Assembly: GCF_011745625.1 (NCBI RefSeq)
Contig: NW_027191471.1
Span: forward strand, 124,001 to 188,000
From: Cladosporium halotolerans
Lineage: Eukaryota
Direction: 5' to 3'
DNA length: 64,000 bases
Shown here: piece after piece, positions 17,155 to 55,200 of the stretch
Position numbering within the stretch: the first letter of the stretch is position 1
Layout of the letters: each line of letters starts with the position of its first letter
The notes under the pieces: generated by a model
The model's database searches: none
Told to the model about the DNA's origin: nothing
The model's input: the letters and a program-made list of their open reading frames with translations, nothing else
Position numbers and translations under genes: made by a program

Positions 17155-17869
17155 ACCAAGTTTGTCATCGTGGATATGACCGGCCAGGCCACGAGACACC
17201 TTTCGGCTTCTTCTCCAGGCGTTTGGTAGCATTGCGTCGCCCGAGATGCATCGCGTCACAGCAAGCTTTCGTCTTTGTTTAAGGTAAGAATGTGCTTTTC
17301 CAGAGTTGTTTGAGCGGACAAGGGCGAACGCGGGCATTCCAATTGGCAGATCAGGATACGCAGCGGACGTGCTGCAAGGCAGCGAAGCAGACGAGCAGAC
17401 TGGCACATGGCATGCCGTGCTCAGTGGGCGATACGATGGATTGGTCTCCTTCCGCTGCTGCTGCAGTCGGATGTATTGTTGCATGCACGCATGAAGACGA
17501 GAAGGGAAACCGAAAACGAGATTACCATTGCCACGCCGCAGACGTGGTCAGCACATGAAACGGAAGGCGAGCAGCTAGTTCTGCACGCCACGCATCAAAT
17601 CGATTTGTTTTCAGACAGAGTAACTCCTTCCTGCGCCTTGCTTTTTTCGGTGAATATTCCCAGTCCAGTTTCGTGCTTCCTTTGACCATTCGTTCTCCAT
17701 TCGGTATGCCTATCCTCGCCGGCCCGCTGGTCCCCGCCCTGGTGTGTCGCGAAATCTGCGATATCTTCCCACTCCAATACCCAGGATGATATTTCTTCTG
17801 GCAGATACCGCACCGACTCGCTCGTACTCTCTCACTCCCCATCGGCGAAGTCCTTCCTCCGAAATGAAA

Positions 17870-18209
17870 TCATCGCGCCTCAAACTGAATCATCCTATCA
17901 AATCGCCGTCAGCTTCAGCCCTCTCACTCCCTCCAAAAACTCCTCCCTCCCAAGCCGCAAAACTCCAAAGACTCACCTATTCGTCCTCTCCTTATACAGC
18001 ACACGGTACCCGCACTCCTTGCAGCGGATCGGGTCGCCGCGCTTCAGCGTGACCTTGTTGTCGCAGTCGCCGCACAGGTAGTGCACCGGGCGCGCCGTGT
18101 CTTCGAACCCGCTGCCGCTCGCCTGGAAGCCCGTGTTGCTCGCGCCCGTCGTGCCGCCGAAGTTCGTGCCCGCCGACGTGCTGGGGGGTTGGTATTGTTC
18201 GCGCGACAT
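17870..18209 (-). CDS. RPB12: RNA polymerase I/II/III shared subunit Rpb12 (RPC10); intron 17895-17976
   Basis: YLCGDC..IRCKECGYRVLYKERT zinc ribbon. The GTGAGT..GCTGAC..TAG intron gives the canonical RMIQFEAR* end. Confidence 0.96.
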
Positions 18210-18602
18210 GCTGGGCTGGGGTCGTGTGTTGTAGAGGTTGCAAAGGCTGTGGTGGTGGAGTACCGGTATGGCAAGGCGGTGGGACGAACTTCTTGCGCAG
18301 AGCTGGCTGGCTTGCGGTCGGTCGGGTCGGTCGATCACGAGGGCACGTGAAAGCCGCCGCCGCCGCCGCCGCCTCCGCCTTGCGAGAAAGGCTTTCCAGG
18401 AAGAAAGGCTCGGTCCGGCGCTCGGCGCGCGCAGACGCCGACATCGCGTGGCGAGGGTCCAAAGTCCCGCGCTTGATGACCAAACGCGATAAAATCATTG
18501 CCCCACCGCCGATAAGTGAAGGCTGCTTGGTAGACTTGCTTCTTTGCCTTCCGCTCCCATGTGTTCTTGCAGAGGCGACGAAATCTCGCGACGACTCACA
18601 GG

Positions 18603-20432
18603 ATGTCGGCGATTCTCTCCGCAGACGACCTGAACGACTTCATCTCCCCCGGCGTCGCGTGCATCAAGCCCGTCGAGACGCTGCCGAAGCAGCAGCCGGA
18701 GGAAGATCGCGCGAACGAGTATGAAGTTACGACTGAAGAGAAGGTGACGCAGGAAAACCCGCCGCCGGCGCAGATCTCTTTGACGGATTGCCTGGCTTGT
18801 TCGGGGTGCGTGACGAGCGCAGAGGCGGTTCTCGTTAGTCTTCAGAGTCACAGCGAGGTGTTGGATACTTTGGACAAGTACAGGGAATACAGAGCGCCGT
18901 GGCTAGGCAGCGAGACGCAAAATGGGGCGGTAGAAGGGAATGGAGACGCTGCAGACGAGAGGATATTCGTCGCGACGGTGTCGCCGCAGAGCAGAGCGAG
19001 CCTTGCGGCGACGTACAATATCTCGGAGCGCGAGGCTGGGCTGCTCATCTCGCAGCTGTTGAGTGGACCGTATGGACTGAGAGCTGGTGGAAAGCATGGC
19101 TCTGGCTTCACTTGGATTCTGGATACGAATGCTTTGAGAGAGGCTTGCCTCGTCGCTTCGGCTGAAGAGGTCCAGCAATCGCTCGACAACCCGGCTGAGG
19201 GACAGAAGAAGCCGGTGCTAAACTCGACCTGCCCTGGTTGGGTCTGCTACGCCGAGAAGACACACCCGCATATCTTGCCTCATCTGAGCAAGCTCAAGTC
19301 CCCTCAGGCACTCGCAGGTACGCTCATCAAGTCCGTCCTGGCACGCAAGTTCGGCGTGCCCCCAGAGAAAGTATGGCATCTTGCCGTCATGCCCTGCTTC
19401 GACAAGAAGCTCGAAGCATCCCGCCAGGAACTCACCTCTCACACCTGGCACGGGCAAGAAGGCGACGCCATCCGCGACGTAGACTGCGTCATCACCGCGC
19501 GTGAGCTCCTCATGCTAGCCGAAAGCCGCAACATCAGCTTCCCCTGCCTGCCCAAGCAACGCCTCAGCAAACAATTCACCCCCTCCTTCCCAGACGCAAG
19601 CATCAACCGCTTCCTCTTCGCCCGCCAGCGCGGCCAAAAGCGCCCCCACGCCCACAGCAGCGACGCCCTCGACCCCGCCGCCATCGGCTCCAGCGGCGGC
19701 TACCTGCACCACGTCCTGCGCACGCAGCAGGCCCGCGCCCCAGGCTCCGCCATCAGAGTCCACCGCGGCCGCAACGCCGACGTCGCGGACTACTCCGTCG
19801 TGGGAGCCGACGGCGCCGAGCTCTTCCGCGCCGCTCGCTACTACGGCTTCCGCAACATCCAGAACCTCGTGCGCCGCCTCAAGCCCGCGAAGCAGAGCCG
19901 CATGCCCGGCGCGACGCGCAGGCCGATGGGGGGCGCGGCGCGGAGGCCTGGGGCTGCGAGCGCGGGAGCGGGCGGCGAGGGGGAGTACGCGTACGTCGAG
20001 GTCATGGCGTGCCCGGGCGGGTGCACGAACGGAGGCGGGCAGGTGAAGATTGGGGATGTGTTGACGCTGAGGCAGGTGGGGGGGACGGGGATTGAGAACG
20101 GGAGCGCGGAGCAGGAGGTTCTGCCGGCGCAGAAGGAGTGGTTGGCGAGGGTTGATGAGGCGTATTGGAGTGCGGAGTCGGAGGATTTGGAGGCTGATGG
20201 GGAGGGGGATGTTGAGATGGGTGGGGGTGGAGATGAAGGAGATGTGGTTGACGGGGTCGATAGGAGGGCGATTAGGGATTTGTTCGAGCATTGGTCGGGC
20301 ACGACGGGGGTGGAGTTGGGGAAGCTGTTGTATACCACTTTCCGGGCGGTGGAGAGCGATGTGGGCAAGACGAAGAGCAGTGATACGGAGAGGGTTGCTG
20401 GGCTAGCGGTCCAGGTTGGTGGTGGATGGTAG
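18603..20432 (+). CDS. NAR1: Cytosolic Fe-S assembly factor Nar1 (Fe-hydrogenase-like)
   Basis: [58 protein letters not shown] and [15 protein letters not shown], with a C-terminal Trp. Intronless. Confidence 0.96.
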
Positions 20433-23400
20433 GGTTGTTGCATTGCATTGGTTGGATGGCGATTAGCCAAGGGATCTTGATCAGGATTTATAGGAGCATC
20501 GCATTTCGAGGATTGCATTCTAGCGCGAACGAATATTTATATGATTTACGATAAGCTCTTACAAGATCCAGGACCCCATACGGTTCAATCGATGACCCTC
20601 GCTATGGTGATATATTCAAGTAGACGATTGCTCCCTTTTCAGCAGCATGCGTCTCATGGGAAACACAAACTGAGCAGACGTCTCAAGCCTATACTTGTGC
20701 CGCCCATCATGACGTTCTGCCTTCAAATCGACTGAAATGAACTGCTGATGTTCATGTGATCGATCAATACTATAAGGGCATCGCGTAACAACCTTGATCC
20801 GCCCATCAATGTAGAAGTAGCGGTGCTCCGGCGCAGCAACAAACGATGAGACACTGGAACGAACAGCGCTTGCGTGCCTACACAATCATGGGGCTCAATG
20901 AACATCACGAACGAACCTCTGAATCGAACACGAAAGAACAACAAACCCGTCCAGCGTCGAGTCAAGGTCTCTCACACCGCATTCTCTGGATTAAGCGATC
21001 ATATGACCACCAACCTCAACCTCCACCTCCACCTCAACACGACCACGCACCACTCACCTCTCAACTCAACGCGCCCAACTTCCGCTCCCACAGACCATAC
21101 AGCAGTAGGTAGCACCTCGCCCAGACTCCCCTCGCACACCGTCCAGGCCAGGGTCCCACGTGCTCCCCGATCTCCGAACGCCGCACCAAACCCACCTTAC
21201 CTAACAACGTAGACCGCCAGCCAAACTACCCATGCATGGCACGCACACCGACCGACTCGCGCTCAATCCCGACTCACCGCGCCCACCGCTCCGCGGCCGC
21301 CAGCCAGCCAGCCAGCCAGCCCGCCCGTCCAACGAAACGAAGCCACGGCCCTAGCAGTAGCAACACCGCTCTCAGCAGCGGCAGGCGGGCAGGCACGCGC
21401 GCGCGCGACCTCGCCCAAGCGCTGGTGCGGCGTTGCTCCGCGCCGCACGCACGGGCGGGCAGTGGGATGGGATGGGATGGGGTGGGAAGAGCGGTATACA
21501 CACACGGTACAGCCGACCAGGACGCGCAGGAACCGCGGCCGAGGCAGCACGACAGTCGCTCGCGGAGCACGGGGGAGACAGGGCGTTTCCTCGGCGCGGT
21601 GGGAGTCTGTGTAGTGTGTACTGTACGACGCAGGGCAAAGTTGCTACTCGCTAGCTTGTGGGGAGAGGAGGGTGGTTGCTGAGGAGAGCAGAGCGGAGCG
21701 GAGCGGAAGCGGGTGTGGCGAGTGATGGGCGGGATGGGATCGACTATTACAGTAGTAACAGTAGTCAGTCAGGCCGCAGGTCACGCGCAGGCTGCGAGCG
21801 AGCGCGCGGGGAGGAGGGCCGGAGGTCGTCGACGGTTGGAGGCTGGCTCGGTGGACGACGATTAGGTGGCCTCTTTGGGGCCTGGCGTGTGCGGTGCTAC
21901 CGTGTAGTGGCCGTGAAGGGCGGCCGTTGAGGAGGTGCTAGCTAGTATAGCACGCTTGCTACGCATACCGCGTAGTGTGAAGAAGGCTGAGGAGAGCGGT
22001 CTGAAGGGCCTGGCGGGCCTGACGGGCGTGGCACGGTCCTGCGTTGAGCGCCTGCGGATGCGGGCGGCGTGTGGGATGGGGATTTGCGCAGGCTAGACAG
22101 GCTGTTTCTTGGGGAACGGACGGAGGAGTTTGCGCGCGCGGTTTATTCGGGCGCGCGGGTTGCTTCCTCGCCTTTGATGGAAATTTTCCTCTCGCCTGTT
22201 ACCGGTCCATGGCGGTCTGGTATAGTGCCGGTTCATGGCGGGTCAGAACGGCGGGGTTTCGCGCCTTCTGACCGCGCTCTCGCCGCGGGTGGGATGGCGA
22301 CTAGGACTACTGTAAACGAGGCGTGAAGACGGTGAAGAGCCACCGCTGTCGACGGACCTGACCAGGCCCAGCGACGGTCGTCGAAGCGAGGTCTGCGACC
22401 GCCAACGGGCGGCACCCGGCAGAGCGGGTTTTCCGCGCGCGCGCGTGTGGACTGGCTTTGGGATGACAGGCGTGAACGATGGTACGCAACAGTCGAAGAT
22501 CTGGCTCGGGAGGGCGGATCGCGACGGACGGAATCTTGGGACGTGACCCTCTCTGATGAGAGCGAAGACGCGGCCCTGGGATTGGAATTGGCTCTCGTCG
22601 CCTCGCGCGAACGCGTGCGTGGTCGACACACAGACTGCGACGACCACTGCGTCGGGTATGGCAGCCCAATGCTGACGCCTCTCGCCCTTGCGCAGCGGCG
22701 GCCCTGATCGACCTACACGCGCGGTCGTCACGCAGCCATCGTTCTCCCTTGAACCTTGACGACGAGCCCTCCAGGAGCCTTCCGTTCGGCGCGGCAATCG
22801 GCAGGGTCTCTTTCTTGCCTGAAGTCATGGACTCGTGCGTGTGTGCCTGCCTGTGCGGGCTAGACCTGGGCGCAGTGGTCAGTCTGCGACGGCGGGTTGG
22901 AGAGGGCAACTATCACCGCTGAGTCGTCGGCTGCGGGCGCTGGGCGCGATGAGTCGTGGCGAGCGCCGCTGGCCTGCCCTGACTTGCGGCGCCCGCGGAT
23001 CTGAGACGGCGCGCGAAGCGCACGCGCGTGTCGTCTCTTCGCTGGCGGGCGCCGCTGGGCTGATGAGCGTTGGAAGTCGTACTGCTGTGGCGACCGACCG
23101 ACGGCGGCAGGGCGAGAGAGATACGGGGCGACGAGCGCGGAGTTGGACGCCGCCTGCGTCTGCGCTGGCGATGCGGCGGTGGATGGGCTAACGGACGGTA
23201 TCTCACTGCCGCCCGCCCTCGTGATCAATAATATTCCGGCAGGCGAGTCTGGATCTTGGTTCGGGACTGCAGCTCCAACGCGCCGCGCCAGCTTCTCCTG
23301 CGCGTGGCCACTGACGACACAACATGACTCTACATACAACCACGACCACGCGCGCTTCCAAATAATCGCCCTCTACGGACTGTGCAGAATGCCGATCAGG

Positions 23401-24721
23401 GTCGACGGCCATGAATCGAAAAGACAGCCATGGCGCCACGGCGCGCGCGCACGTCTTGCGCGCCGCGACAAACGCTCCAAGGGCACACGCTGTTGCGGCG
23501 TGCCGCACGCTCTGCCGTCCTCTCCAGACATCCGCACGGCGGTGCAGTAGTCGGGTCAGTAGCACCTGAGCCCAAGCCGATCTGCTGTGCAGAAGGTTCA
23601 GCGTGGGAGGCAACGGCGCGCCGCTAGCGAGCCTCCGGATGCGCCTCCCCGGGGACCCGCTGGGCGGAGAGGGAAAAAAATGTGTTGGTTTCAGAAGGGC
23701 TCGCGCTGCGGGTGCGAGTGGCTGGGAGCCTGGGAAGGGCAGAGGAGGGACTCCGGGAGGGGTGTTTAGACTTCCTGGAGCGGAAGTTACGGTGAATGCG
23801 GTATGCATGCGGCGCGGTGCGATTTCGTGATAGGCTGCGTCGGTGAGCCTGCTGCGTGGTGCGTTGTTTTGGTTGGATGCGCCGAGTTATCTGCGCGTTC
23901 GGATAAGTGCGCATGCATGCACGAGTATCCGATCTTGGGCTCTGATGACGGTTGCGGGTATAGGTTGGGAAGCGTGGTGCTGATATAAGACGGTGGAGTG
24001 CGCTGCTGGCGGGATGGAGGTCATGTGATGAGACAGACCTGCCTGCTTTGAGAGGGGCGGTGCATACGGGAGAAGCGCGAGAGACGCATCACGCCGGCGC
24101 CAGACAGGATGTTATCACTACGATCAAGGAAGGCTGTTGTCGCATGGCAGTCAATAATTGTCAGCACACCTTCAGCAGTACGAGCGCGCCGGCAAAATTG
24201 ATAGTCAGGCACAAAAGCTAGACAGGCACACAGAGGGCGGGCTAAGGCATGCAGGCATCCAGTCCTGGCTTGGCTTCAGGGGCGCCTGCACTGCGATCGG
24301 CCGGCCGGTGTGGTGCCGTCACGGGCGTCACCACTCGCTGCGTGTGCACGTCGATGGCCGGGCTGTTCGATGTGGTGTGACCAACTTCGTGATGATCGCA
24401 GGCATCGCTTATGGCATTCTCATCTCGCTGACGGCGACGATGACGCTTGCCCTCGCGCACGTGACACGTCGCCGTCAATCATCTGTCAGCGCGCGCTTTT
24501 ATCTGGGCGTGAGATGAGCTGCGGCGGGGCATGCGAGGCTGCGAGGCTGCGACACGTTGGTGATACGAAACGCGTGGGATCAGGGTGCTCAGGGCGTCCG
24601 GGCTGTCAAGTGGCAATCATTTCGTGACACGCGAAAAGGGGCGCACGAGCGCTGCGATCTGTCCGCCCGGCCGTGTGCCCGTCCGCGACTCCACGCCGTC
24701 CGCGGCTGTCGACGTGGTGCT

Positions 24722-24768
24722 GCCAGCCTGCCAGCCTGCCACCCGCCAGCCTGCCACCCGCCAGCCTG
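24722..24768. repeat. Short tandem repeat GCCAGCCTGCCACCC (about 2.5 copies plus a partial unit) in the long IME2 upstream region
   Basis: Read directly. Neighbouring microsatellites are (GCCA)n near 21299, (GGGAT)n near 21464 and (CAAT)n near 25307. Confidence 0.7.
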
Positions 24769-26595
24769 TTGTCTTCACGGCATCCTACCGGTGGGCCCAG
24801 GGCTGGAGACGCGGTCAACGGTCGTCTGGCCTTAGCCATATTGCCTGCGTGCGGTAGTGGCATATGCAGTGCTGTTGCGCCGGACAGCGCAGCAGCACAG
24901 GACAACGCACGTCGCACGTCGCAGCGCCGACCAGCGCAGCGCGTCTGCCACCTCGTTGCCCGCCCGATGGCAGGCGTCGTTTGGCCATTATTGGGCGGCG
25001 GACGGCGGGCGGGCGAACCCACGAAGGCGCGCCCGCGCAACGCAGGCGACGGCCGCATGGGTGCTTAATTTAGGTTGCCGGAGGAATATTACAATGCGGC
25101 TAGCGACGAGGGCAGCAGTGCCTAGGTAGTGCTGTGCCCGGAGTCCGACGCACACCCGCAGCCGGCACCCACCCGCCGCCTCCCCTGCCACAGGGCTGCG
25201 CCGGGCATGACGGTGGACGGCCTGAGGGAGCGGCCTGAGCCATCGCCGCCGGCATGCCTGCTGGCTGACCGCATCGCATCGTGTGATATGTCCTGTTCCT
25301 GCGCGTCAATCAATCGCTCAATCAATCAATCAATTCGCTCCCAGCCCGCCGTCCGCCGCGGCCGCCGCCTGCTAGCACCCTCCTTAGTAACTGTAGTGCC
25401 TGCGCGTGCTAACCACCACCGCCGCCTCTCGCCCTCGCGCGCACGTCTCGCCTCGCGGCCCAACCGCCATACACCACAGCGCCTGCTCAATCTCGTCTGC
25501 TCGCCAATGACATACACCTCGCCCTAGCGCCGTCCGACCGTTTCCCAGGGGCCTTCGCCCCCCGTCGCCTGCCCTCAGAGCCCGACAGCAGACGCGCCGC
25601 GCTGCGCTGGCAACACTCCTCGCCCTGTGCCCGCCGGACGTGCTCGTCTTCTGGAAGCGATGCCAATCCCGCCCTCTTCACCCTCGTTATTACCTTTCAT
25701 TAGCCCCCCCTGGCCGGCCTGTCTCACTCCATACCCGCCCGTCCTCGCCGTCCTGGAGCCCACCCGGCCGGCACTTGACGACGCCTGCCCGCCCTCCATC
25801 ACCACCGCCCTGCCGCCGCACTGACACGGCGCCCTGCCCACGCTCGCTCGCCGTGCTCTTCTGGAAACGCTTCGCGCGCCGCCCGGACTGCTCCGCGCCG
25901 CGCAGCCTGAGCCCTCCTCGTTCCACCCACCCGGCCCTCAGCCTGAACCCGGCGCGCGCGCCGCTCCCCTTACCACGCGCTCGTCGTCTGTCACGGCGCC
26001 AGCCCGCCGTCTGCGCGCCTGTCTCATCGCCATCGCGGGCTCCACTACCCTCGAGTCAAGCCATAGACCCGCGCCGCGCCAGCCCGGCCCTGTTCCTGTT
26101 GATCTCCTGCTAGTCCGCGCCATCTGGTCCGGGACCGCTTCCGCCATCCGCAGTCTTGGTGTCTGCCCGTTCACCTTCTCGAGCTCGCTACCTCATCGAA
26201 ACCCTTCTCCAGGACCATCCACGCTCATTTACATCCAACTCGACGCCTGTGCAGGACCCTGAGTCGTCGCTGCATCTCATCCCTCCAGTCCCTCCTTTTG
26301 CATCATCCTATCTCTACACCGTCACCTATATCGACACCAACTAATCCTAATACACCCGTTCCCAATCCGTCCGCCCCCTCGCTCCTGTCTAAGACAATCA
26401 CACAAACGCCCGCCAGACCCGCGATCGCGTACCACGTCTAGCCCATCGTACGTCCCGCCCGATCTTACACACCCAGAAACTTGGAGACTGACCGTCGCAA
26501 CCAGGCAACATCCGACCTCTCCTCTCACACATGTTGAGGTAGAGCTGGGTTCATCAGACTGATCGGCTTCGAAATATCGGAGCCCAAGTGCCACA

Positions 26596-42047: not shown

Positions 42048-42175
42048 GGGTTTGAAGCTGGTGGTGGCAGTGACTTTATTCGTAGATAGCCCAATCTGAT
42101 CTCTCTATAGTCAAAGGGTATCTTCTGTCCGTCCGCCAAACTCTCAAGTCCGTATGCAAAGCAATGGGAAACGCC

Positions 42176-43760: not shown

Positions 43761-44252
43761 ATTGGAAATTTCTGCCTTCACAAATGTTTCCTTGGAGGTA
43801 TGGGAGAGAGTGAGGTGTAGTCGTATAGATATAGGTTGGCCAGCAAACCGCGCTAAGCCCGGAGAGGACGGTCGGGTGATCTGTGCGGTACGATTGCTTG
43901 TTGGTTTGAGGACACGATCTTGTCCTCATGTCCTTACCTTCCCAATAAGAGTGGAGCGCTTTCATTAATGATGGATTTCAGAAAGAGACGTGGAAAACAT
44001 GAGTCTTCGTGGGTGGCTTCTGTAATGATGTTTGGCGCATACTGCGGACGCACATTCTTCCGCATGACAGCCAATGGCCTCAGCACTCGTCAGATCGTTC
44101 ATTCATATACAATATATCTTCAGCTCTCTTCGTACATCCAAATTCAAGCGACTCTCCACCCCATCGCCTTCAAAAGCTGCCACCCACTAGCCCAACAAGT
44201 CCCCGTCCGCTTCACCACCATTTGCCTACACCCAAAAGTCAACAACCGCCGC

Positions 44253-45510: not shown

Positions 45511-46022
45511 GATGCTGTAGTCAGGGAAGATACAAGAAGTGAAAGGAACATTGGAAGTGGGATGCTGGAGTCGAAGGGCGTGATATAGCTATCCGCATGT
45601 ACCTGCCTATTGTGGGCCTTTATGTAATTTGGCTGTGAGCTTGCCGAGGGCGGCGAAGAGATAAGTGACCACTGCCGTGAACACTTTGCAGTGGACCCCC
45701 GTGAATGCAACATTGAAGTGCGGGGAGCAGCTGGACTGGCCGCTGAGGGCTGACTCCATGTCTTTGGCGTGGGGCTATTCGGATGCCGCGGACGCGATAC
45801 TGTACCGCATCTGAAGCCGGCCTGTGGCGGGTTGTGTTGAAGCTCATGTCATCTACACAAAAACGAGATCAAGCGTCCAATCTCGCTAGGAGATTCAAAT
45901 CGATTCACATGATTGGTTTCAAACGAAATAGTCGTATCCACCGTAACAAACCATCAAGAAGTTATTGTGTTTGAATGGTGGAAGAAGATGCAGTCAGAAT
46001 GGAGAAGATGGATTGCACAAAG

Positions 46023-46070
46023 ACGCGTCTTGGCAAGCTGCAAGCCGCACGCGTCTCGCTTCACGACGCG
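46023..46070. promoter_or_regulatory. Cluster of three MCB elements upstream of PSF1
   Basis: ACGCGT at 46023-46028 and 46049-46054 and ACGCG at 46066-46070, 130-175 nt before a replication gene. Confidence 0.7.
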
Positions 46071-46198
46071 GTCAAGCTTCCGAGACCACCAACACCAGGC
46101 ACAATCAAAGGAACCGGCCTGAACCCCACCACACTCCTTGAAAAACAAAAAAACAAAAACCCAGAAAGAAAACCCAAAAGAACACGCAACCACCAACC

Positions 46199-46858
46199 AT
46201 GTACGGCGAACAAGCCAACAAGCTCGTAACAGACGCCAAACGCATCCAGCACCTCCCGCACCTCCCCCCCTACGCCAGCGCCACAACCCAAGCGGTAACA
46301 AAAGAAGTGCGCGACCTGGACCGCGAAAACAACGAAATCCTCTCGCAGTACAGCACCAGCAACGCCTCGCAACCCGACCCCTCCAGCTCCTCAGGAACCC
46401 CTCTCAAATCCTCCTTCAACCCCGCCTCCGACCCCGCCACCGCCTGCGCCCTCATGGTCAACCACCTAGCCATGCGCCGCAACAAGCGCTGCCTGCTCGC
46501 GTACCACCGCACGCGCACCTCCAAGCTGGAGCGGATGATCTGGGCCGGCGCGGACCCCTTCGCCTCGCCCTCGCCCTCCAGCTCCGGCTCGTCGTCCCTC
46601 TCCGCGGAAGAAGAGCAGTTCGCGCACCAGTACGGCGAGCTGCTGGCGCAGTACAAGGGCCAGTGGACGGACGTGGACCTGACGGGCAGCCTGGAGCCGC
46701 CGCGGGACGTGTTCGTCGACGTGCGGGTGCTGAGGGATGCCGGGGAGGTGCAGACGGAGTACGGGAGTTTGAACCTGACGAAGAACAGCCAGTTTTTCGT
46801 GCGGAGGGGGGACGTGGAGGGACTGATTGCGCAAGGGTACGTGCAGATTTTGCGGTGA
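46199..46858 (+). CDS. PSF1: GINS complex subunit Psf1
   Basis: MYGEQANKLV..LPPY..RRNKRCLLAYH..LTGSLEPPRDVFVDVRVLRDAGEVQTEYG..LIAQGY. Confidence 0.96.
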   Translation: MYGEQANKLVTDAKRIQHLPHLPPYASATTQAVTKEVRDLDRENNEILSQYSTSNASQPDPSSSSGTPLKSSFNPASDPATACALMVNHLAMRRNKRCLLAYHRTRTSKLERMIWAGADPFASPSPSSSGSSSLSAEEEQFAHQYGELLAQYKGQWTDVDLTGSLEPPRDVFVDVRVLRDAGEVQTEYGSLNLTKNSQFFVRRGDVEGLIAQGYVQILR

Positions 46859-47596
46859 GGGGGGATTTCTTGAAGAAGTTGGGTTGGCGGAGAGGAGATG
46901 CCGCCTTGGGCCGGTATGCGATTCAAAGGCTTCGCGGGGAGCGAAATGTCGCCTTCACCGCACCGCGCAATCCAACCCCCAACAGAAGCGCGCAAGCCAG
47001 CGCGCAACCCCTCTTGTCCCAGCTCCCAGAACCACAGCCCGAGCCCTTCAATGGCTGATGACACCACGCCCACCCAGCCAGCCGACAGGACAACAACCCA
47101 CGCAACCGAGACACCCGCCGTATCCAAAAATCAGGAAAGCCAGCCAGCCATTTGGGCTAATCACAACCTCCGTCGATCTGGAGCGGGAAAGCGGGAATCG
47201 AAGTCCTCGAAGCGATGAGGTCTGCTGCCGCCAGAAGATTGGAGAGGGTCGGGCAAGACAAGTCAAGGCACGGTGGCAATGCCGCGCAGCGGTCGTGGGT
47301 GAGGCTTTGGTGCGTACCTTAGGGAACGTAGGCGATCGATTCACCAGATGAATGAGTACGGGGAAGGCAGGAGCTGTAGTAGACGAGAACCCAAGAAGAA
47401 AACGAGGCCGCGAGGCCGTCCCCAAACAATTTTATTTCGCGCCAAATCGTGTGCGGATTCCCCAAGCAAAATTATCTAGTCATTGCTTAAGAGCACAAGT
47501 GCCATCCAATCATGTCTATAACAATCGTTGCCTCCGGAAAACCGTCCTCCCCTAAAATCCCGTGCACGCTTCATTCAAACAGAAAAAGAAAAAAGA

Positions 47597-48944
47597 TCAC
47601 CCACTCAACAAATCCCTCACACTCATCCCCCCCGGCACCCCGCTCCCCCTCCTCTCCTCCCCAGCACCACTGCCACCCCTCCCCTCCCTCCCCCTCCAAA
47701 CCCTCCGATCACTATTCAACATCAACAGCGCCGCCGTAGCCTCCTGGTCCAACTCCAGCTCACTCCTGACCCCCTGCCTAGGCGTCGCGGCCCGCGAGCG
47801 CTCGGCGTCCTTCTCGCTCTGGCGATCGAGCGGCGGCAGAGCGGGGCTGCCGAGCGGCGCGGGCGCGTACTGCGGGATGTGCGAGAGCTGGGGCCCGAAA
47901 GCGGGCGAGGCTTGGTTGGAGTGGATGTAGGGGCTGTAGGAGGCTTGGCTGGCGGAGGAGACGGAGTAGTGGCGGGTGGAGAAGACGGAGGGGGAGGTGG
48001 TGTTTGTGCTGGCTGTGGTGGTGATTTGGGAGAGGGAGGGGAGGGAGATGAGGGAGGAGGTTTTTTGGAGGGGCGCGGGCGGCGGTTCGTAGGTCGGGAC
48101 GGAGGGGTGGGGTTGCTGGTTGTGGTGCGGTTGCTGGTAAGGTTGGTGTTGGGGTTGCGGTTCGGGCTCGGCGACGGGTTCGGCCATTTCGTCGTCCGAG
48201 TCGAGGTCTTCGTCTGCTGGTGTGCGGGACGGGGGTGGTGGCGGGCGTGGGGAATTGTTTTGTGCTTGCAGGTCGGTGACGCATTGTTCGAGATAGCGGA
48301 GGTAGTCGATGCCGGCCTGGAAGATATATGTTAGTAGGATGACCAACGGCTGAATCAAACGACTGTGCCCATACCTGAAGGATCGCCAGCTTGTGCATCT
48401 CCTGCCCTTGACACGCAGGAATCATATCTTTCAACACGCCAAACTCCTCGTTCATCTTCGATCGTCTTCGTCGCTCGATCAAGCTGTGTGCTGTTTTCCT
48501 CGCGATCTTGCGTCCAGCGGCGGTCGTTCCCTTCCCAGAGCCCTTCTTACCGCCATTCGCTTGCGCGGGCGGGTTGGATGCCTTGCCGGAGTTGGACGAA
48601 GCAGCCTGCTGGGTGCTGGTCTGGTCTATCTCACGTGGCTTCATCTGGATGATCTTGCGCGACCGCGTGGGCGGCGGAGGCAGGGAGAAGTCATCCTTTG
48701 TGATGACAGACATGGTGGGCTGGGCGGAGCGCTTGCGTGGGTTGTCGGTGGTCGTGCCGGGCGACACCGGTCTATAGGACGAGTCCGAGCCGTTGTTGGA
48801 AGGAGTGGACGAACTGTTGCTCACGCGATCGGCCTCGGCGTAGGCTGTGGGAGGGAGGGTGAAGGTCGGGGCGTCATGGCTGCCCTCTTTGCCCCGGATA
48901 TCGCTGGAGGATCCCGGGGTTGGTGGAGGCAGCGGGCGAGGCAT
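47597..48944 (-). CDS. bHLH transcription factor (possibly of the EcdR/UrdA type); intron 48317-48374
   Basis: RKTAHSLIERRRRSKMNEEFGVLKDMIPAC..HKLAILQ|AGIDYLRYLE, with C-terminal EATAALLML and MSVRDLL motifs. Ortholog assignment is from memory only. Confidence 0.88.
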
Positions 48945-49341
48945 GGGGGAGGTGGCGATGACCGGGCTGGTGTCCTTTGCGGTGCACGTCGACGAGTGCG
49001 AGTGCGCCTCGGGCGGCAGAGGGCGGCGGCGGGCGAAGTACAGATGCTCTGCGTAGGAAGCTATGGTGGGCGACACGAGAGGGGGGGTTTCACGTCACGG
49101 CGGGCGGCGGGCGCAGATGATATGGAGACAGAGCGGCGAGGGCGAGAGCGACAGCAGGTGGAGGCGTGTGTTGCGAGACATGGTGGGATTGGACGCCGCC
49201 CGCCTGCCCTCCCATATCGCAGCGCAGGGCAGGGCAGGCGCGATGGATGGGTTGAATGGCGAGAGCGAGGCTGTCGCGTGCTCGTCAAGCTGCCTGCCAT
49301 TGGCCCAGAGCCTAATCGCATTGAGCAGGCACGTGCTCTCC

Positions 49342-49526
49342 TCCATCACTGCCACACGCCTGCCTGACTTTCACTATTCCATCGCTGCCACACGCGCCTG
49401 ACTTTCACTACTTCTACCTTACTCCATCGCTGCCACACGCCTGACTTGCCTTAGGTACTACCTGCCTTAGGTACTGCCTGCCTTAGGTACTACTTTCCCT
49501 CCTCCATCACTGACTGCCACACGCCT
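49342..49526. repeat. Composite repeat: four TCCATCRCTGCCACACGC-type units plus three tandem 16-bp CCTTAGGTACTRCCTG-type units
   Basis: Unit A starts at 49342, 49378, 49423 and 49503 (the last has a 4-nt insertion). CCTTAGG occurs at 49449, 49465 and 49481, an exact 16-nt period. Confidence 0.9.
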
Positions 49527-49939
49527 CTAGCTTGCCGTTGGTGCGAGTCGCAGTGAGTGAGGGCTGCAGCCTTGCTACCTAAGGAACTTAGTAAGGTGTC
49601 ACCTCAGGTAGTAAGGCTCTTTCGGCCGGCAGGCCTGACTTTCCCTCGTTGGCCCCGTCATCGCACTGGCGCGTCTCATCTTCGGCGCAACAGAGAAGGA
49701 GGGCACGTGGGCGCTTTGGCTGGCTGCTTGCCCTCCGACGCCCTGACGCCTCGACAGCCCGCAGCCCGCAGGCGGGGGAAAAAGTCGGGGTTAGCGCGGC
49801 CGGCCCATTCGTTCGTTCGTCCGTTCACCCAACCCCGACAATCACGCGCACGTGACACGTCAATGCATCCAGAAAGGGTATCATCATTACAAGTCGGAAG
49901 TATTGTTCTACTGCACAGACGTCGCGTGACGGGGATCCT

Positions 49940-51278
49940 TCACGCCTTCGTCCTCGTCGATCTCCGGCTGCCCGGCGTCGCAGGCTTCTCTGCCTTCTTC
50001 GCTGCGGCCTTCGTCTTCTTGGGCTTCTGTTCTGCTCCACCATCTGCATCCTCTTCCGTCTGCTCAGCCTTCACGCCATTCACCTTGCCTTTGCCTCGTG
50101 CTGTAGTCTTCTTACCAGCCGGCTTCTGTTCCTCCTCTTCCTCCTCATCCTCTTCCTCAGCCTTCACCTTCCGCTTGCGGCCCTTCGCGGGCTTCTCGGT
50201 CTCAGAAACCTCTGCCGAGCTCACGTCTCCCGCAACGGCAGCAGTCTTCTTCTGAACACTCGGCACAATAGCTGAAGTCCTTCCACCAACCTTGAGGTGC
50301 ACAATCTTCTCGCCATTGGGCAGCACATTTCCGTCTTTCTTGCCCTTGTCCCACCGATACTTCATAAGCCACGTCTCAGGGAACTTCTCCGAATCAGCCA
50401 GCGTCTCGCACGCCGTCGTGCACACGTAAACGATCGCCTCGTGAAGCCGCTTGATCTGCTCTTCGTCGAAAGTATTGCTGTACTGCTCCGGGTGAATGCG
50501 CGCTTGATAGAGCACTTCGTCCGCAACCCAGTTGCCAATACCTGTCCACTCGTCAGCCCGTCGCCCCTCTAATCGTCCCAAACCCTCGCCAAACTCACCA
50601 GAAATATTCCCCTGATCCAACAGCAGCGCCTTAACCGGCACCTTCTTCCTCCCCATCAACGCCCCCAAAAACCCCACCGTAAACACCTCCCCATCAACAA
50701 CCGGATCCGGCCCGTTCTCCTTCAGCGGCGAAACATTCCTCACCTCCCCCTCCGCACACTCCACGAGCCGAATCCTCGCCAACCGCCTCGGATCCACAAA
50801 CGCCACCTCCACCGCCTCCCTCCCCTGGCCCTCCCCCTCTTCCTCCTTCTCAAACCCCAGCACAAACTTGCAGTACTTCGGCGGCCACTCGCCCGCCTCC
50901 CCTTTCTCCTCCATCTCCTTCTCCTTCTTGCTGCGATAATACCCCGTCTCCTCCGAGCTCACTTTCACCCACCCCGTCATGCCCAGGTGCATCACGGCGT
51001 GCGGCGGCCGGTCGAACGTGAGGTAGAAGTACTTGCCCTGCTGGCCGGCGCCTGTGATCGTGCGTCCGGAGACGGCGGACTGGAAGGCCGCGGCGCTCGT
51101 GCCGACTTTGCCGTAGACTATGGGGTCGTCGTGCGCGGTGCAGGTGGCTATGGTGCGGTGCAGGGTGTGCCGGCGGAGGTGGTGGAGGACGCGGGCGACT
51201 TCGCCGATCTGGATGGGGAGGGTTAGTTTGGGTTGGTGGGCTTGGGATGGGAAGGGGAGGAGGTCGTACCTCGGGCAT
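49940..51278 (-). CDS. FPG: Formamidopyrimidine-DNA glycosylase (Fpg/MutM, plant/fungal type); introns 51209-51269 and 50542-50598
   Basis: Micro-exon MPE spliced to IGEVAR gives the catalytic Pro2/Glu3. Also QGKYF, HLGMTG, DPRRLAR, KALLLDQ..SG|IGNWVADEVLY (H2TH) and VGGRTS, with a Lys/Glu-rich tail. Confidence 0.94.
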
Positions 51279-51916
51279 TGTGGCGGGATTATGTGCTGGG
51301 TTTCTTCGATAGTCTGTGGCTGTCGGCGAGACGAGAAAGGTGGGGTGGGACGGGGAGACAGAGTGATGTACAAGACGAGCTGGAAGTCGCAGGGATCATA
51401 AGCACTTTACGCGTCTAGGCCGGCAGGAAGACGCGACGGGGCGCTGTGGTGACGCCATTGGTTCCGGCGTCGCGGGAACATCGAAGCGAACGAACCGCGT
51501 GGGAGCCTGCGCGCTTGAAGATCTCACGTCCGCGACGTCGGCATCTCGGTACATCACATCAATGCTTCGAGGCTCAGACGAAACGTTCAATGAGACTGAT
51601 AAGGCTGCTGTCCTAGTGATATGCACGTGTGGCCCTGCCCAAGGGAAAGGTAAGAGACTCAAGCAACTGGACCTGACCGCGCAAAAGAACGAGTCAAGCT
51701 CCAGAGCACAGCGAAGAGCTGCCCCGAAGCATGAAGGACCAAACGCGAGCGCGGGATAACACTCGTCGTCCTGAGGGACACAATATCCTATAGCGGCCGA
51801 ATCCAAAGTCACATCTTGCCCCATTCTTCACCTGTCACGCGAAGCTGAACTGAGTACGAGCGGGATCTGGCAAGGGGTCTCGAGGGGAACAGCACCAATC
51901 ATCTCTCACACTCGCG
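51279..51916. promoter_or_regulatory. Putative bidirectional promoter between FPG and Pol X with MCB-like sites
   Basis: 638-nt spacer between divergent ATGs. ACGCGT at 51409-51414 and ACGCGA at about 51431, 51743 and 51837. Confidence 0.55.
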
Positions 51917-54070
51917 ATGGATTCCACAACCGAGGACGAGCGGCTCGCACTGAAGCGAAAGTTTCACCATGAAATGAACTCGTTGGATCGCAGCGACGAT
52001 GAGGCAGACGATGGCTTGCGCGAGTCTGTCACGGCTCTCAAACGCCACGCCAGACGAACACCCCTTCATTCGAACGACAAAATAACTCAGACATTGAGCG
52101 CTCGACAGCTCATTGCCGAGAACACCGGCTCAAAAGATCGAAGGTCCTTACCGCGGTCCGTCTCAGATGTAGGCCCGTCTCCCAGCAAACAAGCCGCGGC
52201 CGCATCAGCACTACGGGATCTCAAATCTGACACCACAGACCTAATGAGTACTCGAAAGACCTTCTGGGGCGCAGTGGCACCGATATCATCCATGCCTTTG
52301 GTAGCAGGAAAGCGCAAGCGCGACAGCACAATCAACCCCATTCCAATACCCAAGGAGCAACAGATCTTCGACGGCCTACACTTCTACTTCTTCCCCAACA
52401 ACGAGAAACACCCCGCTCGCTTGATGCGTATCAACAAGGCTATTGCTTTCGGGGCGACTTGGCAAAGGGACTGGAGTGATCATGTCACGCACGTGGTTCT
52501 GGACAAGGCGATGGATTATGCCATGCTTCTCAAATTCATCAAGAAAGAGTCTTTGCCAGCGGGTATTGTGGTGGTGAATGAAAGCTGGCCGTCGGAGTGT
52601 ATCGCTTATCGAGCTTTGTTGGATTTTACCAAACCTCAATTTAAGGTGATTGGAGCTCCTGTAGCAGCCGCTCCTCCGCCGACAGCAGTGCCAGCGTCTT
52701 CGGCAGATTCTGACACTTCGTTGAAGCTTAAGCCGGCGGGAAAGGATGTGATGACTCGGCAGCCAGAAACTCAACCGTCAGATGAGAATGTAAATCGCAA
52801 CGTTATTGCGCCAGAGACAACCGTTACCGCGACAGTTCCTGTCGAGGACGAACCTTCTACCGACATCGGTAATTCTGCCGAACTTGACGCGGCGATCAGT
52901 CAAGCGAGAGAACTTCAGATGATGCCTTTGGATGATGAACACTCCGGAAGTCGCCCCGGCAGCTCTGATGGCGCGTCTATGCACCAAGTCCCAGCACCTT
53001 TGAGCGGCCAGTCAAGTAGCAAGCGCCAGGCACTTCAAGAGAAGTTTCAGTGCATGCAGAAGCACACTGGAGAAGTCAAGAACACCGCAAACTCAGCGAC
53101 CATCGCCATACTGCAACAAATGGCAGACTATTACGGCCAGATGGGGGATGAGTGGAGGATCCGAGCGTACCGGAAAGCCATTGCAACCCTTCGCAACCAC
53201 CCGACGAAAGTCTGCACAAAAGAAGAAGCACTAGCTTTGCCGAACGTCGGAGACCGCCTCGCCACCAAGATCGAAGAGATAGCTTTCACAAACCGCTTGC
53301 AGCGTTTAGACAGCGCACTGGCAGAGCCGCAAGATCGCATCCTCCAAACCTTCATGAAAGTCTACGGCGCAGGCTTCGTCCAAGCCAGCAACTGGGCCCG
53401 ACAAGGCCTCACAACCCTCGACGAAGTCCTCCAAAAAGCCGACCTAACCGACAACCAACGCCTCGGCATCGAGCACTTCTCCGACTTCCAAGACCGCATC
53501 CCCCGCGCCGAAGTCACCCAGCACGGCGCCATCGTCCGCAAAGCCCTCCACACCCTCGACCCAGCCTTCCAGCTCACCATCGGCGGCTCCTACCGCCGCG
53601 GCGCCAAAGACTCCGGCGACATCGACTTCATCATCACCCGCCCCGACACAGCCCTGCCGCGCATCCGCTCCGTCGTCCTAGACCGTCTCATACCCGCCCT
53701 CTTCGCGCAGGGCTTCCTCCAAGCCGCGCTCGCCGTCTCGTCCGCCGACGACGGCTCCAAATGGCACGGCGCCTGCTGTCTCCCTGGGCAGACGGCGTGG
53801 CGGCGCGTCGACTTCCTGCTCGTGCCGTGGGCGGAGATGGGGGCCGCGCTGATCTATTTCACGGGGAATGATATCTTCAACCGCAGTCTGAGGTTGTTGG
53901 CTAGCACGAAGGGGTACAGGCTGAATCAGCGCGGGCTGTATAAGGATGTTATTCGGCGGAAGGGGAGGGAGAGGATGACGGAGGGGACGCTGGTGGAGGG
54001 GAAGGACGAGAGGAGGATTTTTGAGGTGTTGGGCGTGCCGTGGCGGCCGCCGGAGCATAGGGTTCCGTGA
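51917..54070 (+). CDS. POL4: Family X DNA polymerase (Pol lambda/Pol4-like) with BRCT domain
   Basis: BRCT (IFDGLHFYF..THVV..W..EC), 8-kDa domain (WRIRAYRKAI..LPNVG..LATKIEEI), GGSYRRG..GDIDF, RRVDF and YFTGNDIFNRSLR. Confidence 0.95.
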   Translation: MDSTTEDERLALKRKFHHEMNSLDRSDDEADDGLRESVTALKRHARRTPLHSNDKITQTLSARQLIAENTGSKDRRSLPRSVSDVGPSPSKQAAAASALRDLKSDTTDLMSTRKTFWGAVAPISSMPLVAGKRKRDSTINPIPIPKEQQIFDGLHFYFFPNNEKHPARLMRINKAIAFGATWQRDWSDHVTHVVLDKAMDYAMLLKFIKKESLPAGIVVVNESWPSECIAYRALLDFTKPQFKVIGAPVAAAPPPTAVPASSADSDTSLKLKPAGKDVMTRQPETQPSDENVNRNVIAPETTVTATVPVEDEPSTDIGNSAELDAAISQARELQMMPLDDEHSGSRPGSSDGASMHQVPAPLSGQSSSKRQALQEKFQCMQKHTGEVKNTANSATIAILQQMADYYGQMGDEWRIRAYRKAIATLRNHPTKVCTKEEALALPNVGDRLATKIEEIAFTNRLQRLDSALAEPQDRILQTFMKVYGAGFVQASNWARQGLTTLDEVLQKADLTDNQRLGIEHFSDFQDRIPRAEVTQHGAIVRKALHTLDPAFQLTIGGSYRRGAKDSGDIDFIITRPDTALPRIRSVVLDRLIPALFAQGFLQAALAVSSADDGSKWHGACCLPGQTAWRRVDFLLVPWAEMGAALIYFTGNDIFNRSLRLLASTKGYRLNQRGLYKDVIRRKGRERMTEGTLVEGKDERRIFEVLGVPWRPPEHRVP

Positions 54071-54690
54071 GAGGGGTGGAGTTGTTGGTTGGGATAGGGT
54101 AGATGGGAGGGTTGATTGGTGACGGGAGTGTTTTGCAATAATGCGGGTTCGTAGTGGTACGAGGGGTGAGATTTTTAACGCATAACGCAACTGGGTGCAG
54201 CCGGTTGGAAAGACTAGAAGCCCTACGAACAACAGCGGCGAGCACTACTCCAGACGGGATGCCCAAACGGCGGCCAAAGCTCCTGTCCGCGCAATGCTAT
54301 TCCCCCGTGTCCCATCTGAATAGTGCCTGTCCTTGCGACAGGTTTACTGCATCAGTCAGAGCTTCGGCGTACACAAAGCCAGGATGAACCATCGAGTCCT
54401 CCTGCAAATCGGAAACCACTGTGAACATAATACTCTGCCCTCTCCAGGGCTTCTTCAACGTGTTTGGGACTTGACACACTCCGCGAGTGGGACAGCTCAA
54501 CTTGAAACACCGCCTTGTCGGGCCGCGTGTGGACTCCACCCTAGCATTGTCGAGAAACAATAAAAGGTTCCGTCGATCACCTGGAATGAAATAGTCCAGA
54601 CCTCCTCAACCTCACAACATCCAGATCAAACCAAAAACCAAAACCCTCTTCCACCTCAGCCAACCTCAGCCACCCCACCAACCAACAAAC

Positions 54691-55131
54691 ATGCTCTCCC
54701 CCAACTCCCTCCTCGCCCTCGCCCTCGCCACCACCCTCGCCACCGCAACCCTCATCCCAGCAACCTCCAACACGAAGGGCTCCCGCCCCGCCTCCCCCGC
54801 CTGCAGTGCGGCGAAAACCAGCACAGCAATCCAAGCCGCCGAATGCAGCCACAACACGCGCACCTCCACGACGCAGACGTTCGCCGTCTTCAAGACAGAC
54901 CACCAGTACGACGGCGTGCAGGGCGCGCCGTACGGGACGTGCGAGGCGTACACCTGCGAAGCGGGCGAGATGGAGGCAGCGGAGGATTACTGGACTTTCT
55001 TTTGGGGGGATGATGCGCGGGGGGAGAGCGAGGGCGAGGGCGCGGGGTGTATTAAAGACCCGCAGAGTGGGGAGTGCGGGTGTGAGAATTCGGATGGGGA
55101 ATTTATTGCTGGGAAGAGCGATTGCTCGTGA
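54691..55131 (+). CDS. Small secreted cysteine-rich protein (146 aa, 8 Cys)
   Basis: Hydrophobic signal LLALALATTLATA, 8 Cys in the mature region, and a good CAAACATG start context. Confidence 0.8.
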   Translation: MLSPNSLLALALATTLATATLIPATSNTKGSRPASPACSAAKTSTAIQAAECSHNTRTSTTQTFAVFKTDHQYDGVQGAPYGTCEAYTCEAGEMEAAEDYWTFFWGDDARGESEGEGAGCIKDPQSGECGCENSDGEFIAGKSDCS

Positions 55132-55200
55132 GGGGCTGCATTTGGGTGCTGTGTAGGTAGAGGTATGGCCGGAATCGATTTCGTGCAGAAAGTTGCCACA

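Follow-up and report, generated by a model that had tools for sequence, protein, structure and literature searches.

Recurrent C-to-G skew units in a Cladosporium halotolerans contig, probably an extreme, sawtooth form of the GC skew known within fungal genes

In most of about 60 fungi studied by McLean and Tirosh (2011, PMC3315797), genes carry a C bias at the 5′ end of the coding strand and a G bias at its 3′ end. This skew extends into promoters and 5′ untranslated regions (UTRs) and into 3′ UTRs, is present at 4-fold degenerate sites, alters amino-acid usage and is weakly correlated with expression. Candida albicans shows it strongly, Saccharomyces cerevisiae and Schizosaccharomyces pombe weakly. 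AT skew in that study is flat along genes, positive, and positively correlated with GC skew. As explanations the authors offered mutation, through polymerase cofactors that differ along the gene, and adaptation, through limitation of cytidine triphosphate (CTP); they described gene averages with no intron effect, and left the cause unresolved. Here we describe a 64,000-nt stretch of the Cladosporium halotolerans genome (contig NW_027191471.1, positions 124,001 to 188,000; hereafter “the window”, numbered from its first letter), where the + strand repeatedly passes from a C/A-rich arm through a CpG-dense center to a G/T-rich arm. A preliminary description of this DNA knew of no account of such a pattern; the report of McLean and Tirosh is one. 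On balance we consider that the domains are probably an extreme sawtooth form of this within-gene skew and are linked to genes. Each uninterrupted transcribed segment would run from C/A-rich to G/T-rich on the coding strand, and the skew would snap back in the next intron or intergenic spacer. Such a segment is usually either a short gene or an exon of at least about 450 nt; in a long gene it is the final 0.6-1.5 kb.

The near-exclusion of G and then of C that had been noted earlier was borne out. G-poor stretches of 150-390 nt contain 8-11% G and 39-56% C (for example 36249-36636, with 56% C and 8% G, and 41377-41675, with 54% C and 9% G), and after a CpG-dense stretch they are followed by C-poor partners with 9-11% C and 35-56% G (for example 36739-37005 and 47895-48171, each with 55% G and 10% C). 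We defined a C-to-G switch as a minimum of the cumulative G-C skew with a prominence of at least 40. Between 17800 and 55200 there were 20 such minima, 13 of them with a prominence of at least 90, and 1264 windows of 150 nt held less than 10% of either G or C. Each of the 18 centers listed in the preliminary description had a minimum no more than 141 nt away (the worst match being 42650 against 42509), and two weak minima, 29924 and 47171, were additional to that list.

As controls for chance we used 200 mononucleotide shuffles and 200 shuffles of 90-nt blocks. The former gave on average 5.8 minima of prominence at least 40 and 0.47 of at least 90, and both the mean and the maximum number of 150-nt windows below 10% were 0. 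The block shuffles gave means of 22.3, 6.3 and 162 and maxima of 29, 11 and 487 for the same three counts. The large domains and the near-exclusion of one base therefore exceed chance; the count of small minima (20) is not above that of the block shuffles.

A scan of the whole window for skew jumps of at least 0.6 between 300-nt flanks found 14 C-to-G and 10 G-to-C switches, all within 18030-54904. The C-to-G switches lie in DNA with a G+C content of 0.62-0.76 and 20-35 CpG per 200 nt, the G-to-C returns in DNA with 0.45-0.64 and 9-21. Some returns equal the C-to-G switches in sharpness (31121, -1.17; 42073, -1.12). The earlier statement that the polarity is always C then G needs qualifying in this respect. 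A accompanies C and T accompanies G on the + strand (GC skew against AT skew, r = -0.27 over 124 windows). Each of the 23 G-quadruplex (G4) motifs in 17800-55200 is on the strand that is G-rich in its arm, 13 on the + strand to the right of the nearest C-to-G switch and 10 on the - strand to its left. The only motifs found enriched at the centers were hexamers of the CGCG type (4-7 fold), which is accounted for by composition.

Could such a pattern arise from repeat copies, from faulty assembly, or simply from protein composition together with ordinary codon preference? We regard this group of explanations as very improbable. A repeat or mobile element family was rejected: the arms match each other only compositionally, as low-complexity sequence with 61-78% identity. 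As for assembly, contigs from two public runs join across GT..AG introns of 50-66 nt and are therefore RNA-derived; those of one run are identical to the window, and the region, arms included, is also covered by DNA contigs of other studies at about 96% identity. The sequence is therefore not an assembly artefact. The window as a whole has 57.9% G+C and an observed/expected CpG ratio of 1.02, meaning that CpG is undepleted.

Protein composition and codon preference required a closer look at the coding exons. The strongest signal is at third codon positions, where the skew runs from about -0.9 to +1.0 inside one exon. Within about 20-60 codons, third-position C goes from 0.7-0.9 to 0-0.1 and G from 0-0.1 to 0.6-0.9, with T near 0 on the C side and A near 0 on the G side. 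Pooled over 15 units, 4-fold sites have C.72, G.17, A.08 and T.03 in the C arm and G.66, C.18, T.11 and A.05 in the G arm. At these sites the two arms are near mirror images (reverse-complement symmetry), for + and - genes alike. Third-position G+C is 0.9-1.0 at the switches versus 0.3-0.6 in some flanking coding DNA, and values of 0.7-0.9 are common in RLI1, OCD and ABH, which have no unit.

When synonymous codons were shuffled within each of 22 coding segments, the observed jump exceeded all 300 shuffles in 12 segments; against full codon shuffles the corresponding number was 14. It was reached by 2 of 300 shuffles in PRP11 and 3 of 300 in PRP40, and by 19-278 of 300 in the other eight (IME2, the last exon of FPG, SGM1, LIM, RLI1, OCD, ABH and ACAD). 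The jump left by these protein-keeping shuffles was 0.3-0.84, compared to 0.12-0.35 for full codon shuffles, so amino-acid composition is shifted too; in TBCE, for instance, L, T, S, P, H, N and Q abound in the C arm and G, E, V, R and W in the G arm. Amino acids therefore contribute part of the jump, and in RRP42 their pattern is common to all orthologues examined. On the other hand, composition alone does not account for the 12 segments beyond all synonymous shuffles, for the skew that persists at 4-fold sites and in untranslated flanks, or for TBCE, whose amino-acid skew is lineage-specific. Taken together, these data support the conclusion that the pattern is not due to codon or amino-acid selection alone. 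As previously stated, RLI1, COT1 and IME2 lack it.

The domains had been described as independent of genes, and this did not hold. We compared the switches with a map of confident coding exons, drawn up by combining Pfam hits with reading frames, a codon-usage score and the introns that RNA supports. Seventeen of the 20 C-to-G minima fall inside these exons, which make up 56% of the region, and of the 19 G-to-C maxima, 17 are outside them in introns or intergenic DNA. A placement as good or better arose in only 28 of 20000 circular shifts. The exceptions are the minima 21452, 29924 and 47171 and the maxima 19217 (NAR1) and 33390 (SGM1). Because a passage from C/A-rich to G/T-rich on the coding strand is its own reverse complement, the + strand reads C then G for genes of either orientation. 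It is for this reason that the pattern had appeared gene-independent.

The flanks follow the same rule. On the coding strand, 3′ flanks were G-rich in 12 of 12 cases (skew +0.05 to +0.64), and 5′ flanks were C-rich or neutral in 9 of 9 (-0.01 to -0.62), mostly with more A than T. At the arginase gene the skew changes sign 36-51 nt past the poly(A) site, which is marked by a poly-T loose end at 44086. On the 3′ side of the gene or exon, the next boundary follows a switch after about 290-790 nt; the length of the C-rich side measures from about 400 nt to more than 2 kb and scales with gene length. The FPG unit is an exception to this 3′ anchoring in that its G-rich side covers two exons. In third-position profiles of the 22 coding segments, the coding strand favors C toward the 5′ end and G toward the 3′ end, with exceptions; RLI1, OCD, ABH and PRP40 have no G-rich 3′ end.

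The skew resets at introns. Across 10 of 11 introns (10 RNA-supported, one predicted), + strand skew was higher in the left 200 nt than in the right 200 nt. The mean drop was +0.28 compared to -0.35 for random positions in the same exons, and none of 5000 resamples reached the observed value. Four resets were large (31105, +1.15; 48316, +0.64; 50540, +0.39; 35685, +0.30), six differences were +0.01 to +0.17, and one was -0.08. The clearest case is RRP42, which has two complete units, one per exon, in exons that are contiguous on one homologue. Its third-position skew goes from -0.56 to +0.81 in exon 1, restarts at -0.85 in exon 2 and ends at +0.83, and the splice signals of the predicted intron between them are GTGAGT (donor), CTAAC (branch point) and CAG (acceptor). 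Two units each also occur in NAR1, POL4, bHLH and SGM1. In NAR1, SGM1 and POL4 (the last by its third-position profile, at about 52780), the boundary between units lies inside an exon at a dip in third-position G+C.

Related genomes carry similar units. Among named species, the closest relatives of three of the proteins are from Cladosporium fusiforme (TBCE 61%, PSF1 75%, RRP42 79-85% identity). TBCE orthologues on metagenome contigs (46-54% identity) have a 3′ part that is C-rich and then G-rich, with third-position skew of about -0.4 to -0.8 followed by +0.75 to +0.9; the switch falls at differing alignment columns, and one orthologue has two units. The 3′ end of SGM1 on an orthologous contig (L005) goes from -0.75 to +0.55 at the matching place. 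The PRP11 orthologue on two contigs, L002 and L003, retains its unit despite a different gene order. L002 1-669 and L003 734-1427 have 81% DNA identity to window 37647-38340, and on both contigs this orthologue stands upstream of TBCE rather than downstream, which is a local rearrangement.

To compare proteins, we used the amino-acid-implied skew, the G-minus-C content that amino acids force on codon positions 1 and 2. In TBCE of the window and a 93%-identical protein, this was -0.5 to -0.75 over residues 151-330 and +0.3 to +0.7 over residues 331-511. It was intermediate in nine Cladosporium-like proteins and about -0.3 to +0.3 in most of 25 other orthologues, nearly all from Dothideomycetes. 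The last bin was positive in all orthologues, and a marked C arm was seen in a few others, such as Zymoseptoria P0029 and Lasallia P0116. For PSF1, the implied rise from 5′ to 3′ was +0.31 in the window, the largest among 26 orthologues (others +0.02 to +0.25). At the level of sequence, these comparisons show a skew that is more strongly developed in the Cladosporium lineage, persistent across relatives and mobile in detail.

The mobility can be seen at the edge of an arm. We compared 38 difference rows (of 987) within 35284-36191. In 35794-36189, the window has G/T where three relatives have C/A at 13 of 14 informative sites, and in 36102-36191 one relative has G/T where the others have C/A at 9 of 10 private sites. 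Arm edges thus shift by concerted, directional change between genomes about 4% apart, the direction being unrooted. Two length polymorphisms in or beside arms were also observed. In the last exon of SIR2, 106 nt of the C-rich arm (42207-42314) are missing from the RNA contig of a relative, and in 49342-49493, upstream of the bHLH gene, the stretch 49359-49410 beside tandem repeats of 16-36 nt is replaced in that relative.

What produces the domains? The data show a force that is strand-asymmetric, locally symmetric about each switch and active on all site classes. The preliminary description had read it as a footprint of mutation or repair, rather than of codon selection, centered on fixed points such as replication origins or resected breaks. 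The first part agrees with the skew at synonymous and non-coding sites (shuffles, flanks); the fixed points found no support. Probably the cause is a strand-asymmetric substitution bias, of mutation or of repair and not of selection on codons or proteins, which is likely to be transcription-coupled. The strand running 5′ to 3′ away from the switch would lose C and A and gain G and T. An outcome of 80-90% G+C in which one base dominates is out of reach of transitions alone, so C-to-G exchange, or else a bias in fixation, would have to contribute. Deamination of resected 3′ tails fits poorly as the source of this bias. With the break at the center it would be expected to give G-rich then C-rich; with breaks at the boundaries the polarity comes out right, but the effect should peak at the boundaries and does not.

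As a mechanism we tentatively propose, while regarding it as far from assured, that, coupled to transcription, the displaced strand is exposed in the wake of RNA polymerase. The 3′ arm would be affected by sense transcripts and the 5′ arm by antisense ones. As RNA-DNA hybrids are more stable when the RNA is G-rich, the process would be self-reinforcing, and introns and spacers, being A+T-rich, would break it off. We rank this mechanism first because the switches align with transcript ends and introns, and because the skew is strong in a fungus without regular meiosis and weak in highly recombining yeasts (PMC3315797).

Several observations weigh against a gene-linked, transcription-coupled origin. 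The amplitude is maximal beside the switch and fades toward the boundaries, rather than being maximal at transcript ends: in TBCE the third-position skew is +1.0 at 36782-36872 and +0.47 to +0.65 near the stop, and the C arm builds over about 650 nt. This centre-peaked amplitude fits spread from the center better than it fits distance from transcript ends. There is no obvious link with expression, as the transcript of deepest coverage and RLI1 have mild units or none and arginase has a strong one, although contig depth is a poor measure of expression. The antisense transcripts over the 5′ arms are putative, since the contigs carry no strand. Two genes begin G-rich, TBCE in its exon 1 and NAR1 over its first 640 nt. 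AT skew here runs negative against GC skew (r = -0.27), whereas that of PMC3315797 is flat and positive; this mismatch marks a variant and does not exclude the same underlying phenomenon. The G/T-for-C/A shift at the upstream edge of the TBCE C arm is concerted, its direction unpolarised. In RRP42, the two-cycle amino-acid pattern is common to 22 of 22 orthologues, as far as Aspergillus and Penicillium (Pezizomycotina), so the pattern can be old; protein composition may there be the seed rather than the product of the skew.

Two further points weigh against it and also concern the definition of the unit itself. Two G-to-C boundaries, 19217 and 33390, are intra-exonic, and the unit at 21452 lies in DNA without coding signal or known transcript. 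The unit is therefore best described not strictly as an exon but as an uninterrupted G+C-rich segment between A+T-richer spacers, in practice mostly an exon or a short gene.

Spread from the center is what would be expected if the domains were footprints of recombination, with breaks in G+C-rich exonic centers and mismatch-biased repair of heteroduplex on each side. On the invading 3′ tail, C.C mismatches and, less so, A.C mismatches would escape, and G.G and G.T would be corrected to the donor. C.C mismatches are poorly repaired in yeast meiosis. The 3′-ended strand would become C/A-rich on both sides, so that the + strand would read C then G, and this derivation gives the right polarity. The peak of amplitude and of third-position G+C (0.9-1.0) at the switch with fading over 300-500 nt, the near mirror-image arms and the lack of clear expression dependence also fit such a footprint, and the passages drawn on here from a study of the related Zymoseptoria tritici (PMC5844332) place 1435 of 2578 inferred hotspots in exons and the lowest rates in introns. 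The same passages, however, find almost no GC-biased conversion and no conservation of hotspots. Moreover, skew is strong in C. albicans and weak in the highly recombining S. cerevisiae and S. pombe (PMC3315797), the G arm is anchored to 3′ ends with a sign change near the poly(A) site, the intron resets require an extra assumption, and A exceeds T on the C arm where an escape of pyrimidine mismatches from repair predicts the reverse. We consider recombination unlikely, though it is the main rival of the transcription-coupled mechanism.

Another possibility is selection on the transcript or on transcription, with G-rich 3′ ends promoting pausing or termination and C-rich starts slowing early elongation through CTP limitation; as a further candidate, C and G might be kept apart so as to restrict the local folding of RNA in a genome rich in G+C. 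Near-saturation at synonymous sites, alignment with transcript ends, the placement of 23 of 23 G4 motifs on the G-rich strand and the adaptive hypothesis stated in PMC3315797 speak for selection. G-rich arms, however, also end internal exons right before introns (RRP42, bHLH, FPG), where a termination signal would be harmful. In addition, the unit at 21452 is in non-coding DNA, the arms are mirror images though their functions would differ, and conserved proteins have been remodelled. The folds of the units are only slightly more stable than those of within-arm shuffles (z -0.9 to -3.3, mononucleotide shuffles only), which indicates neither clear designed pairing nor avoidance of structure; a designed hairpin between the arms was rejected, as the excess is too weak and confounded by dinucleotide content. 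Selection of this kind seems to us quite unlikely.

Returning to substitution bias, a more general proposal is that the sawtooth arises by self-reinforcing strand-specific substitution, in which whichever strand is locally G-rich keeps losing C and A, the process being pinned by introns and spacers. We hold this as a rather doubtful possibility. Its routes could be RNA-DNA hybrids of sense and antisense transcripts or mismatch-specific heteroduplex repair around intragenic breaks. In the Cladosporium lineage, such a process would have driven 400-nt coding stretches to near-exclusion of one base and rewritten conserved proteins such as TBCE.

The units are listed in Table 1. Genes were identified by Pfam scans of stop-to-stop open reading frames (ORFs), which matched ordinary fungal housekeeping genes on both strands: RLI1, PRP40, a LIM protein, an NDR-type kinase, an IME2-type kinase, RPC10, NAR1, the exosome RNase-PH subunit RRP42, SGM1/TMF, TBCE, PRP11, a GNAT acetyltransferase, SIR2, arginase, PSF1, a bHLH protein, FPG, POL4 and others. 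The RPC10-like gene (-) was recognized by Zn_ribbon_RPAB4 and NAR1 (+) by Fe_hyd_lg_C. A search of the whole window found no tRNAs or known RNA families.

Table 1. Skew units between 17600 and 55200 of the window, with the position of the C-to-G switch and the genes in which they lie.
Interval	Strand	Switch	Location	Remarks
17600-19217	.	about 18030-18174	RPC10-like gene (-), divergent promoter, first about 640 nt of NAR1 (+)	minimum 18174, prominence 94; right arm weak
19217-20555	.	19907	3′ part of NAR1 (+)	left boundary 19217 inside exon; third-position skew -0.86 to +1.0; observed jump reached by 0/300 synonymous shuffles
20555-24650	.	21452	G+C-rich DNA without coding signal	C/A-rich arm 20900-21400, CGCG-rich core, then long mild G-rich stretch
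29550-30212	.	29924	downstream of IME2-like kinase gene	weak minimum, prominence 46
30316-31112	+	30820	RRP42 exon 1 (30642-31104) and C/A-rich 5′ leader	85% identity to residues 1-156 of C. fusiforme homologue
31112-32140	+	31580	RRP42 exon 2 (31176-31762)	reset in predicted intron 31105-31175; 79% identity to residues 158-340 of same homologue
32149-33390	-	32834	3′ end of SGM1/TMF (-)	right boundary 33390 inside exon
34550-35700	.	35024	SGM1 (-) 5′ coding part, divergent promoter, TBCE exon 1 (+)	weak; ends at TBCE intron 35685-35744 (RNA-contig supported)
35751-37436	+	36626-36649	TBCE exon 2	strongest unit, prominence 507; G-poor 36249-36636, C-poor 36739-37323
37440-38718	-	38091	whole PRP11/SF3a2 gene (-)	
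38721-40780	-	39297	spliced (-) transcript 38705-40339	mild
40805-42089	+	41748-41767	whole GNAT acetyltransferase gene (+)	prominence 234
42089-44040	-	42472-42509	SIR2 (-), mainly last exon	
44050-46030	-	44582-44723	arginase (-)	
46044-46948	+	46604	whole PSF1 (+)	
46951-47415	.	47171	under no confident gene	weak minimum, prominence 45
47415-49280	-	47819-47842 (last exon); about 48683 (exon 1)	bHLH (-)	strong unit in last exon, weaker in exon 1; reset between them at intron 48316-48373
49280-51656	-	50990	FPG glycosylase (-), middle exon	last exon G-rich on coding strand throughout; partial reset at intron 50540-50596
51656-54220	+	53784	POL4 (+)	strong 3′ unit; weaker upstream unit, third-position skew -0.55 near 52300, +0.75 near 52660
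54220-55200	.	54908	predicted (+) ORF 54595-55128	prominence 353; coding score 37.5, no Pfam family

Two entries in the table deserve comment. Between NAR1 and the IME2-like kinase gene lie about 5-6 kb of G+C-rich DNA (20555-26700, 62-75% G+C) in which we found no Rfam family, no Pfam match, no period-3 signal and no ORF with a coding score of at least 12; around the unit at 21452, the period-3 signal is about 1 over 21001-26000. This DNA contains short repeats (GGGAT, CCAGCC and CTGCCAGC) besides its one full skew unit, and possibly represents, upstream of the kinase gene, a long stretch of regulatory sequence or of non-coding RNA. The spliced transcript at 38705-40339 (-) has introns at 39570-39634 and 39812-39876 and by far the highest contig depth in the two RNA runs; no Pfam family matches it, and at about 1.7 its period-3 signal is weak.

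The arms also leave a trace in public assemblies. Contigs break within them, with loose ends at 36593-36813, 44898-44929, 47693 and 54710-54744, and one DNA contig falsely joins two G-rich arms (36886 to 43055, a jump of 6168 nt). Such low-complexity arms are a hazard for short-read assembly. The bias sets 70-90% of synonymous sites to one base and moves the composition of conserved proteins, overriding codon-usage selection within genes, and it will mislead gene finders, codon-usage indices of expression and phylogenies that are sensitive to composition. For the fungal within-gene skew reported in 2011 (PMC3315797), a lineage in which the skew is extreme, resets at introns and shifts between close relatives is a tractable system that could separate explanations by transcription, recombination and selection. 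If substitution here is indeed self-reinforcing, the clade would be a natural amplifier that makes fungal gene skew directly testable.

Among other known systems, skew associated with replication resembles the domains in its jump from negative to positive and in its coupling of G with T, which is the origin-type polarity of bacterial origins and mammalian skew jumps as summarised in PMC3315797 and PMC2817419. Replication initiating at every center, with mutational asymmetry between leading and lagging strands, would also sit well with CpG-dense centers flanked by G4 motifs. The scale is different, however: about 1 kb here compared to tens of kb to Mb in those summaries. The 20 centers are packed into 37 kb at distances of 0.6-2.5 kb, 17 of 20 in coding exons, and their placement follows exon structure. 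For arms of 300-500 nt to reach a skew as high as 0.8, initiation would have to occur at every center for almost all forks. Origins every 1-2 kb inside exons are implausible, and we give replication hardly any weight.

Vertebrate mitochondrial DNA offers another parallel, in that its synonymous sites are A+C-rich and nearly G-free on one strand and its complement is G+T-rich, an asymmetry usually attributed to deamination of the strand that is single-stranded. Unlike the mitochondrial case, where one polarity holds for the whole molecule, the polarity here flips about every 0.5 kb. Third-position G+C also stays at 80-90%, and C-to-T and A-to-G changes alone therefore cannot explain the pattern.

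GC-skewed CpG-island promoters of mammals, as far as the accounts in PMC3787257 and PMC2817419 go, are similar in having a C-rich flank, a CpG-dense core and a G-rich flank in a strand-symmetric arrangement, with flanks prone to form G4 structures and R-loops. In those accounts the core is a nucleosome-free promoter or putative origin; here it lies inside spliced coding exons, and promoters, terminators and introns are at the opposite (G-to-C) switches. A bidirectional CpG-island promoter was rejected for the centers on the ground that the cores are in exons joined by RNA contigs across the flanking introns, although internal starts are possible.

The closest counterpart is the fungal within-gene skew itself (PMC3315797). 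The units described here share its polarity on the coding strand, its extension into UTRs, its presence at 4-fold sites, its shift in amino-acid usage and its weak relation to expression. They differ in that gene averages are reported there, whereas here single genes come close to excluding G and then C, the comparison of amplitudes being qualitative. Other differences are the several units per gene, the resets at introns, the amplitude maximum beside the switch and the one non-coding unit. A literature search, made mostly of open full texts with most subscription journals outside it, returned no account of intron or per-exon resets, of several units per gene, of near reverse-complement symmetry at 4-fold sites or of this skew, or a stronger development of it, in Cladosporium. 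The domains are a known kind of feature, here extreme and structurally richer.

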